IMG/VR virus record: IMGVR_UViG_2822819870_000002
Span: 1-64,000 of that record
From: an uncultured virus (IMG/VR IMGVR_UViG_2822819870_000002)
Taxonomy: Duplodnaviria > Heunggongvirae > Uroviricota > Caudoviricetes
Strand: one strand, 5' to 3'
DNA: 64,000 bases
This document shows, in pieces, positions 13,566-14,939 of this stretch. Position 1 is the stretch's first letter. Each line of letters begins with the position of its first letter. Position numbers and translations under genes: made by a program. The notes under the pieces were generated by a model that had not been told where the DNA came from, made no database searches, and saw nothing but the letters and a program-made list of their open reading frames with translations.

Positions 13566-13709
13566 TTGAAAAAAGTGCGTAATCTCGCAGTTTACAAAGG
13601 ATAAAGCTTGTTGTAACGTAGTACACAACAAGCATCATTCTACAAAACAAAACATAATTTGATATTTTACATAAACGAAGATCGATAAAACAATTGAATA
13701 TGAACAGAA

Positions 13710-13886
13710 AATAAAAAAGCCACTCCCATATGCTATCGGCTACCAACCTTTAGCGGGAATGACTCAGTTCTAGTAATTGCTACCAACACTTACTAGACAT
13801 AACCTGTAACCAAGCAGGACTTCGGTTTAAGTAGTGCACCAACACTATCCTTAAACAATTATGCCTTTCGACTAGGCTTATTTGAT
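13710..13886 (-). ncRNA. Putative ~175 nt antisense copy-control RNA (RNA I-like)
   Basis: Promoter TTGAAT(13921-13916)-N17-TAAAAT(13898-13893); three stem-loops with UUGGUAG/UUGGUG loops; last stem followed by a U tract. Confidence 0.7.
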
Positions 13887-13970
13887 ATACCCATTTTATC
13901 TGTGATTGGGCTAAAATTCAACTAGTAAATACTAGATTTGATTATTTTGTAGTCTAAAAGATATATACCG

Positions 13971-14041
13971 GGCATCTCTAAACCTAGAAGTCTTGTGATG
14001 TACAGGCCATTTAGGAATTAGAGATGCCTTTTTGTTTTTTG
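13971..14041 (+). terminator. Terminator/attenuator inside the origin region
   Basis: GGCATCTCTAA (13971-13981) pairs with TTAGAGATGCC (14018-14028), followed by TTTTTGTTTTTT. Confidence 0.65.
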
Positions 14042-14939
14042 TTCGCGTGGAATTGCCTGATACCACGTAAATAAAAACTGATAAGCCGTAATTCCGTGCT
14101 GCTATACATATAGGGGGAACGTGTTACGGCGTGGCTAGCTGTTGGTCGTGCAGGGGGTACTGAGTATACGCCTACAAAAACAGCACCCCTCATTGGATTC
14201 CTGTTCATCTGGTGAGGGAGGGCGAGAACTTGCCCAGGGACGATTCTCTAAAAGGTTCGGGTGGTTATCGTTAGCATTACGGTGCTAGGGAGTACATTCA
14301 GTTTGTCGTGTAGGGACGATATTACAAGGACAAGCCATAGAAAAAGGATGTATGCGGTGAAGATCGCTGAGTGAACAGGGTCTATACATACGGATACCAT
14401 ATAAGTGACCGCATGGCGAAAACAAAGACGCTTATCCATCTATTTTGACTGATTACTTTTTTTGTAGTCTCTCAAAGTAGGGGATAAATCTGCCTTCCAG
14501 CCGTGTTCCATAATCATTCCCACATGATAAAAACCTTCAAGACCTTCAGTCAACATTAAATTCGAAGAAATGATGAAAAATGTGAGGTTGTTTAAGACCT
14601 GGAGGAACTACTTGCTAAGATAGAGGAATAAATAAGGGATTTACTACTTACTTGGTTCGTGGATAATTGGATGGACGGTTAGAATATGTCTTATTGTATG
14701 ATTTGGTTTTATACATCAGATATAGTACGTGAAATTATGGGATTTGTATTTTTGTGTTGTATGGGGTTCAGCTGAGATATGTGTATTATCTTAATCAAGA
14801 AAATTATATTATGAATTAAAAAGTGGATGGACGTTGAATACATATACTTAGCGTAAGGGTGAATTATGTAGCTTTTGAAAAAGTTTGATTAAAAATGTAA
14901 AAAAACTACTTAACAAGATACCATATAGGGGTAGCACCA

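Follow-up and report, generated by a model that had tools for sequence, protein, structure and literature searches.

An open reading frame-free RNA cassette beside the partition locus of a Bacillus cereus-group phage-plasmid is a candidate antisense-controlled replicon

The window analyzed here, a stretch of 64,000 nucleotides (nt), is the first 64 kb of the 77.7-kb IMG/VR virus record IMGVR_UViG_2822819870_000002. The element is a temperate phage-plasmid of the Bacillus cereus group, and an endolysin, an AimR-like regulator, a Sak annealing protein, RecU, a serine recombinase and ParA are among the gene products of the window. Between parA and an IS4-family insertion sequence (IS) lies an interval that contains only short, unconserved open reading frames (ORFs). 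This interval holds a cassette consisting of two parts, a 5′ module (13697–14052) with sense and antisense signals and a 3′ module specifying a structured, G-rich RNA. The cassette is real, widespread and RNA-based, and we consider below whether it serves as the replicon of the plasmid state. The coordinates of its features and of the neighboring genes are collected in Table 1.

The preliminary description of this DNA had found no plausible coding sequence (CDS) between parA and the IS, and this view is borne out. No conserved ORF was found in 13700–14500 of the window, homologues are separated by 1-nt and 14-nt indels, and no annotation lies beneath the match in 29 of 30 plasmid rows among the matches listed. 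A protein-coding reading was rejected because the short ORFs are unconserved and interrupted by indels. The genes located 3′ of the cassette are unrelated among carriers; therefore, the cassette is not the leader of one conserved gene, and that reading was rejected as well. Neither a tRNA nor another known RNA was found in the cassette. Rfam gave no match in the whole window at the gathering threshold, and the best sub-threshold match on 13200–15000 reached 25.7 bits against a cut-off of 100.

By blastn, the block 13200–14736 is common to 102 Bacillus plasmid records, 32 of which are matched over at least 80% of 13200–14950. A more sensitive search for distant matches gave 111 records, including plasmids of 7.3–7.7 kb, one plasmid of Peribacillus and one of Planococcus. 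Scans with a pattern of the conserved core detected 12 genome contigs, 21 metagenome contigs and 65 viral contigs. The 3′ module is present in 29 of 105 genomes of the family, and the core in three of 151 genomes sampled across the order. The motif counts given below refer to 95 distinct full-length elements, and the structural alignments to 23 relatives. In the phage collection, the sole matching record was PQ069203.1 (Bacillus phage C30-2), whose positions 685–929 correspond to 14173–14417 of the window with 83.7% identity.

The 5′ module comprises the sense promoter region, the antisense target, the antisense promoter and a terminator hairpin. Sense transcription would start at approximately 13701, and a TAATAT-like −10 element conserved in the relatives aligns at approximately 13693–13700. 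The plus strand of 13701–14050 has a predicted folding energy of −100.6 kcal/mol (z −6.5; none of 100 shuffles was as good). The three stem-loops (SL1–SL3) and the mini-hairpin proposed in the preliminary description all appear in this fold. The predicted loop of SL1 is CUACCAA (13740–13746), that of SL2 holds CUACCAA (13780–13786), and that of SL3 is CACCAA (13837–13842). Compensatory changes were observed in 10 of the 17 RNAalifold pairs of SL1 and SL3. No part of the cassette varies more than the antisense target, whose diversity is 0.128. The antisense promoter claimed at 13921–13893 was also found by our promoter scan, and its motif is kept in 90 of the 95 relatives. At its end, the predicted countertranscript has the complement of SL1 and then a U run, which together form the antisense terminator that had likewise been proposed; the countertranscript is estimated here at about 185 nt instead of about 175 nt. 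The antisense strand from 13887 to 13698 folds with −55.3 kcal/mol (z −2.9).

Between the antisense target and the downstream region there is an intrinsic terminator, which the preliminary description had overlooked. Because the arms were out of register in the RNAalifold consensus, the terminator was surveyed by folding each sequence separately. In 21 of the 23 relatives a hairpin precedes a U tract, with stems that are unlike in sequence yet self-complementary. The 5′ arm of the terminator can pair instead with 13813–13838, which lies in the antisense target (ΔG −24.5, z −5.1). This alternative antiterminator pairing reaches z ≤ −2.5 in 12 of 21 relatives. Four RNA libraries contain contigs at this locus, including one of 282 nt (13687–13969) and one of 844 nt (13956–14736). 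Because such assembled contigs show no transcript ends, strand or level, and one of them (12.6 kb) may be DNA, the RNA sequencing data were not used as evidence.

The 3′ module represents a structured RNA family that is new, well supported and absent from Rfam. Its RNAalifold consensus has an energy of −96.3 kcal/mol and 108 pairs. Compensatory changes occur in 41 of these pairs, compared with 18.2 ± 2.5 in shuffles and 4–10 in slid controls. The proportion of paired cells is 98.4%, versus 92.8% in shuffles and 37–49% in slid controls, and the covariation score is 0.275 versus 0.166. Because G-U cells outnumber A-C cells by 397 to 7, the plus strand is the folding strand. G clusters favor the same strand in all 23 relatives (GGG 6–15, CCC 0–4), with 15 GGG and 3 CCC in the window. 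The core has a diversity of only 0.027, compared with 0.128 in the antisense target region, and was used to build a covariance model, R1. The sub-domain formed by helices 2 and 3 is absent from five of the 23 aligned relatives, and in the terminal hairpin only 7 of 19 pairs show changes on both sides. The hairpin at 14349–14367 looks similar by eye to domain V of group II introns; there was no Rfam intron match at E ≤ 10, and this idea was dropped.

In the alignment, each of the two modules is also found without the other. At least two further 3′ regions without ORFs (that of L004 and L014, and that of L013) are preceded by the same 5′ module, and model R1 finds no core in them. Conversely, the 3′ module also occurs behind a different leader with its own terminator. 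The hinge motif with TAAAAACTGAT, at the junction of the two modules, is present in 87 of the 95 relatives and is retained where the 5′ or the 3′ module differs.

Table 1. Features of the cassette and of its surroundings (positions in the window)
Feature	Position	Strand	Basis and remarks
Candidate sense promoter, TTTACA-17-AACAAT	13666..13700	+	Promoter scan and conservation in alignments
Sense leader/antisense target	13701..13890	+	From fold; SL1 13718-13763, SL2 13769-13797, mini-hairpin 13803-13818, SL3 13825-13855
Predicted countertranscript, ~185 nt, UUGG-type loops	13698..13887	-	Ends inferred from promoter and terminator
Antisense promoter, TTGAAT-17-TAAAAT	13893..13921	-	Promoter scan
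Intrinsic terminator (putative attenuator), GGCAUCUCUAA...UUAGAGAUGCC hairpin, then U tract	13970..14045	+	Fold
Hinge hairpin, GCGTGG...CCACGT, then TAAAAACTGAT	14045..14068	+	Helix 1 of alignment A2; covariation
3′ module, ~450-nt G-rich structured non-coding RNA, 16 helices	14046..14502	+	Proposed pre-primer/origin RNA
Optional sub-domain, helices 2-3	14083..14131	+	Contains the GATAAGCCGTA and GGGGGAACGTG motifs
Most conserved core, helices 10-13	14296..14425	+	GNRA-type hairpin 14354-14367; AGTGAAYAGGGTC invariant
Terminal long hairpin, helices 15-16, T-rich loop	14433..14486	+	Alignment
Leftward promoter, TTGACT-18-TATCAT	14524..14553	-	10/12 consensus matches; points into the terminal hairpin of the 3′ module
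parA	12371..13201	-	ParA-Ib type ATPase; Pfam AAA_31 (2e-39) and CbiA; transcribed away from the cassette
130-aa ORF	11989..12381	-	Downstream of parA; sole match PHROG phrog_8975, unknown function (1.9e-76)
AAATAGGGA-type repeat arrays (two)	13225-13300 and 13481-13561		Between parA and the cassette
IS4-family insertion sequence	14926..16605	+	Outside the cassette; outer ends approximate

The evidence for a replicon or copy-control role of the cassette is circumstantial and consists of loop differences between co-resident plasmids, the absence of proteins other than a resolvase shared by the small plasmids and the phage-plasmid, and the occurrence of the cassette in plasmids with "no reported minireplicon". 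Most informative is the comparison of pBC07-2 with pBC07-3, which reside together in one strain. Within 13701–14500 these plasmids differ at 23 sites, and their flanks have widely diverged. Thirteen of the differing sites fall in the 190-nt antisense target, eight of them in hairpin loops, and nine fall in the 455-nt 3′ module. Judged from the sequences, this is the pattern that would be expected of an incompatibility determinant. In strain BPN121, plasmids p33 and p8 carry unlike 5′ modules.

When the 29 proteins of three small plasmids were compared with the phage-plasmid by BLAST, only a serine recombinase (resolvase) was matched. No Rep-like Pfam match (E ≤ 0.01) was found among the 10 CDSs of the complete 7.7-kb plasmid NZ_CP128148, and a candidate Rep protein common to all carriers was not found. 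ParA-family genes lie beside the cassette in all four phage-plasmid-type records whose annotation was viewed, and a MOB-suite replicon type is absent in 10 of the 15 carrier records viewed. In a listing of plasmids given by Zheng et al. 2013 (PMC4219350), pALH1, pE33L54, pBWB404 and pLVP1401 are entered as "NA: no reported minireplicon"; all four carry the cassette according to blastn. Passages of Piligrimova et al. 2021 (PMC8026635) on these plasmid prophages mention only protein-coding replication and partition genes. Two conventional origin signs were considered and rejected. Matches to the DnaA box TTATCCACA with at most two mismatches number 282 against 270 ± 17 expected, and the two that fall in the terminal hairpin have two mismatches each. 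The GC skew of the window tracks gene orientation and marks no origin.

On balance, we lean toward the reading that the cassette is the replicon of the plasmid state, based on RNA and controlled by attenuation of an origin or primer RNA. A sense RNA would be initiated at the promoter at 13666–13700, and the countertranscript would be made constitutively from the antisense promoter to approximately 13698. The UUGG-type loops of the countertranscript would pair with the CUACCAA and CACCAA loops of the sense leader, and this pairing would favor the terminator hairpin over the pairing of its 5′ arm with 13813–13838. The 450-nt G-rich folded RNA (14046–14502) would then be present only on read-through transcripts, where it may act in cis as a pre-primer and origin: an RNA-DNA hybrid would be processed into a primer by host enzymes, followed by theta replication. 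The sequences themselves show the conservation, the lack of ORFs, the promoters, hairpins and terminator, the covariation and plus-strand folding of the 3′ RNA, the modular build and the concentration of differences in the loops of co-resident plasmids. Termination upon antisense binding, priming of replication by the 3′ RNA and the dispensability of plasmid proteins are inferences. As DnaD-like proteins are encoded by many carriers, independence from any Rep protein, although plausible, is unproven.

The proposed control resembles the attenuation known from pT181, pIP501 and pAMbeta1, in which a constitutive antisense RNA acts on a leader, the countertranscript drives attenuation and the payload is a rep mRNA. 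The cassette shares with them a predicted antisense RNA on the leader, a terminator 3′ of the target and possibly a competing pairing of the 5′ arm, whereas its payload is a 450-nt non-coding structured RNA. The preliminary description had proposed an RNA-controlled replicon under antisense control. Its core survives in a conserved, ORF-free cassette beside the partition (par) locus with a predicted antisense RNA, and the layout supports antisense control; kinship with ColE1 is not supported, and the regulated step looks like attenuation, not inhibition of primer maturation. A bolder version of this reading is possible, and we put it forward tentatively as less than an even prospect. According to it, the cassette would represent a third, independently evolved family of Rep-free, RNA-primed replicons, the first in Gram-positive bacteria, which fires upon escape from the attenuator, exchanges its sensor and origin modules among phage-plasmids, small cryptic plasmids and integrative elements, and constitutes the missing minireplicon of the pALH1/pE33L54/pBWB404 group.

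Several observations weigh against an RNA-based replicon of this kind. The AGCCATAGAAAAA A run, the proposed RNA-DNA switch point, is kept in just 9 of 23 relatives. Family-wide, the excess diversity of the loops over random sites of the target region is not significant (P = 0.075), and in any hairpin the loops are more variable than the stems. The antiterminator pairing is weak in 9 of 21 relatives, and its partner site differs between lineages. The leftward promoter has no place in the proposed model; its motif is kept in 84 of the 95 relatives, and the transcript that it would produce (14518–14400) is not notably structured (z −1.55). Potential replication proteins are also common. The window encodes a DnaD-like replisome organizer (49280–50146, 1e-82), followed by a DnaC-like loader. 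An HTH_36/DnaD_N protein is encoded by pBFC_1 and the Planococcus plasmid; in pLM5, pBAslCI14 and HD-771 p06, the cassette is immediately preceded by RepA_N/DnaD-like genes of the same orientation; and a DnaD-like ORF is located downstream of the 3′ module in the integrated element of G056. Altogether, most of the carriers examined have a DnaD-like or RepA_N-like ORF.

Copies of the 3′ module exist in elements integrated into chromosomes, and chromosomes also contain the core alone. This again counts against the replicon reading, as an origin function does not require chromosomal occurrence of either. In the G056 chromosome (beside spo0A; L128/L145) and in L131, L132, L133 and L032, the 3′ module follows a tyrosine integrase gene, with CTAAATAACGGACATTCCGT-like direct repeats and a second terminator in between. 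The module of G056 lies inside a plasmid-like integrated element of approximately 14 kb that includes a resolvase gene and the DnaD-like ORF. In several B. cereus-group chromosomes (L135–L139, L141, L029), a core copy of approximately 115 nt (window 14302–14415) is located at approximately 1.12–1.18 Mb, directly after the terminator of a yajQ-like gene. In these copies, compensatory change has preserved some helices while others are disrupted, and four of the copies lack the CCATAGAAA segment. These copies could be relics or functional RNAs. An Rfam search of the chromosomal copies gave nothing relevant.

The abundance of DnaD-like, HTH_36 or RepA_N-like ORFs among the carriers suggests another possibility, namely that the cassette provides the origin and copy control yet requires an initiator or helicase-loading protein (DnaD-like or RepA_N-like) encoded elsewhere. 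There is a parallel in pAMbeta1, which needs RepE together with a transcript. We regard such a requirement as somewhat unlikely, because a specific Rep-origin pair is expected to travel together, whereas these proteins are non-homologous across carriers by BLAST and the RNA is 73–98% conserved. Moreover, no such protein was detected by Pfam (E ≤ 0.01) in NZ_CP128148, and the DnaD-like gene of the window is 35 kb away from the cassette, within a block of phage recombination and replication genes. The chromosomal occurrences raise a different alternative, in which the 3′ module would be a regulated non-coding RNA with a job outside replication (e.g., immunity, anti-defense or host interaction) and the antisense-attenuator part would set its dose. 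The position of the module beside tyrosine integrase genes, the 115-nt core copies after the yajQ-like gene, the several kinds of mobile element among the carriers and the lack of a direct origin sign, including the unenriched DnaA boxes, fit this idea. The adjacency to par, the 10 untyped records out of 15, the "NA" minireplicon entries and the loop differences between co-resident plasmids fit a replicon better. In addition, the smallest plasmids share little besides the cassette, a resolvase, a helix-turn-helix (HTH) regulator with a 210-aa ORF, and a 165-aa ORF. We consider a function outside replication distinctly unlikely.

True evolutionary kinship of the cassette with the ColE1 RNA I/RNA II system, through transfer to or from Gram-positive bacteria, is highly improbable. 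The ColE1 motifs that the preliminary description had quoted do all exist in ColE1 (NC_001371.1), in the same order: CTACCAA at 660 and 693, TACCAA at 739, GATAAGG at 902, GGGGGGTTCGTG at 928, ACTGAGATACC at 976 and TATGGAAAAACG at 1188. In the ColE1 fold, stem-loops I and II of RNA II each have CUACCAA as their 7-nt loop. Identical CUACCAA heptamers occur in two stem-loops of each system, the four downstream motifs quoted there share their order and have similar spacing, and both RNAs are rich in G clusters (18 GGG versus 2 CCC in ColE1 RNA II). Of the ColE1 priming route, in which a persistent RNA-DNA hybrid is cut by RNase H and extended by Pol I at a fixed origin, G-cluster richness is the only sign seen in the cassette. 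Semi-global alignment with ColE1, evaluated against dinucleotide shuffles, gives a marginal similarity for the whole region (z 2.4; 7 of 300 shuffles as good) and for the 5′ part (z 2.6; 6 of 300). The 3′ part, however, reaches only z 1.3 (27 of 300), and local alignment gives z −0.6 to 1.1. The argument from motif order does not hold, as GATAAGCC and GGGGGAACGTG lie in the segment that five of the 23 relatives lack, and the A run of AGCCATAGAAAAA is not conserved. Homology searches gave no support either. There was no match to the cassette by blastn in 5,426 E. coli genomes, word-7 blastn against ColE1 gave only noise, and an nhmmer profile of the Bacillus family (E ≤ 1000, filters off) and model R1 found no match on ColE1. 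The Rfam RNAI model (RF00106), which scores 73.8 bits on ColE1, has no match on 13200–15000 at E ≤ 10 and none in the window at the gathering threshold. Loops of the UUGG (YUNR) type recur in antisense RNAs that are not related to one another.

We read the resemblance to ColE1 as convergence plus chance; the cassette probably resembles ColE1 in logic, with an antisense RNA acting on the 5′ end of a primer transcript, and not by descent. Its putative replication region, like that of ColE1/pMB1 (RF00106), is free of ORFs. In both, a long sense RNA rich in G clusters has a 5′ end to which the antisense RNA, predicted in the case of the cassette, is complementary, and several stem-loops display UUGG/CUACCAA loops. 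The predicted antisense RNA of the cassette is longer (about 185 nt versus 108 nt), and an intrinsic terminator separates the antisense target from the payload; no such terminator is known from ColE1. The hosts of the cassette are Bacillota, whereas ColE1-like plasmids are described in a passage of PMC8683028 as mostly limited to Enterobacterales and other gamma-Proteobacteria.

The pHT1030 replicon of B. thuringiensis is the basis of the vectors pHT304/315/370. According to work by Lereclus and Arantes in 1992, its minimal replicon is reportedly about 1 kb long and free of ORFs, has a stability locus next to it and yielded copy-up point mutants. In 14–15 kb B. thuringiensis plasmids bearing Tn4430 (HD-771 p06, IS5056), the 5′ module is 67% identical over 13697–14052; their 3′ region differs from that of the window, and model R1 finds no copy there. 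The ORF-less pHT1030 may be the nearest experimental precedent, a putative link suggested by the 67% similarity of the 5′ module to these Tn4430-bearing plasmids. In B. subtilis, the 1.1-kb minimal replicon of pLS20 encodes no Rep, as noted in a section of a review (PMC4490491). This class E theta replicon is likewise from a Bacillus plasmid; no B. subtilis record is among the best 60 of the 111 distant blastn matches. The MRB plasmids of Vibrionaceae (type pB1067) have, according to parts of PMC3035462, a Rep-less origin and two partly complementary RNAs, the small one being a negative regulator and incompatibility determinant. They resemble the cassette in the lack of a rep gene and in the antisense/sense pair, which is predicted in our case. 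They differ from it in their unrelated hosts, in an RNA I of approximately 68 nt and in having no known attenuator.

Only ColE1 and MRB are recognized as RNA-initiated replicons in the passage of Le Roux et al. (PMC3035462) that counts ColE1 as the sole other RNA-based family. If our reading is correct, a Gram-positive RNA replicon using attenuation would imply that the RNA-initiation solution evolved repeatedly. It would also account for the maintenance of a large group of plasmid prophages in the B. cereus group that have no known minireplicon, as tabulated in PMC4219350. The cassette would further offer a non-coding marker for replicon typing, given that MOB-suite assigns no type to 10 of the 15 carrier records viewed. 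The copy-number behavior of the widely used pHT vectors may be explained as well if the putative link to pHT1030 holds.

In the surroundings of the cassette, the 130-aa ORF is presumed from its position to encode a partition adaptor. Repeats of the AAATAGGGA type (at most one mismatch) occur 42 times in the window, more than in any of 100 shuffles, and 11 of these matches are within 13225–13561. The two arrays are probably the par centromere or operator; they could bind another protein instead. The IS has 23-nt inverted repeats (14936–14958 and 16571–16593) and encodes a DDE transposase (DDE_Tnp_1) of 496 aa at 14972–16462. The conserved block stops at 14736, and the IS is inserted approximately 190 bp past that end.

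Among the small plasmids, L003, L010, L011/L144 and L014 have a family of 165–199 aa ORFs that point away from the cassette and have no Pfam match, and a pair consisting of an HTH regulator and a ~210-aa ORF is common to three small plasmids. Elsewhere in the window, an FtsK/SpoIIIE ATPase and a Replic_Relax protein are encoded at 7331–9101, and a UmuC-like polymerase and YolD at 4631–6234. The window also holds several defense genes. An island of defense and regulation genes at 26077–45194 includes AspBHI/Mrr-type nucleases, a RES/HEPN protein, AbiGi/AbiGii, an FRG-domain protein, a SIR2-like protein and the AimR-like (arbitrium-type) regulator.

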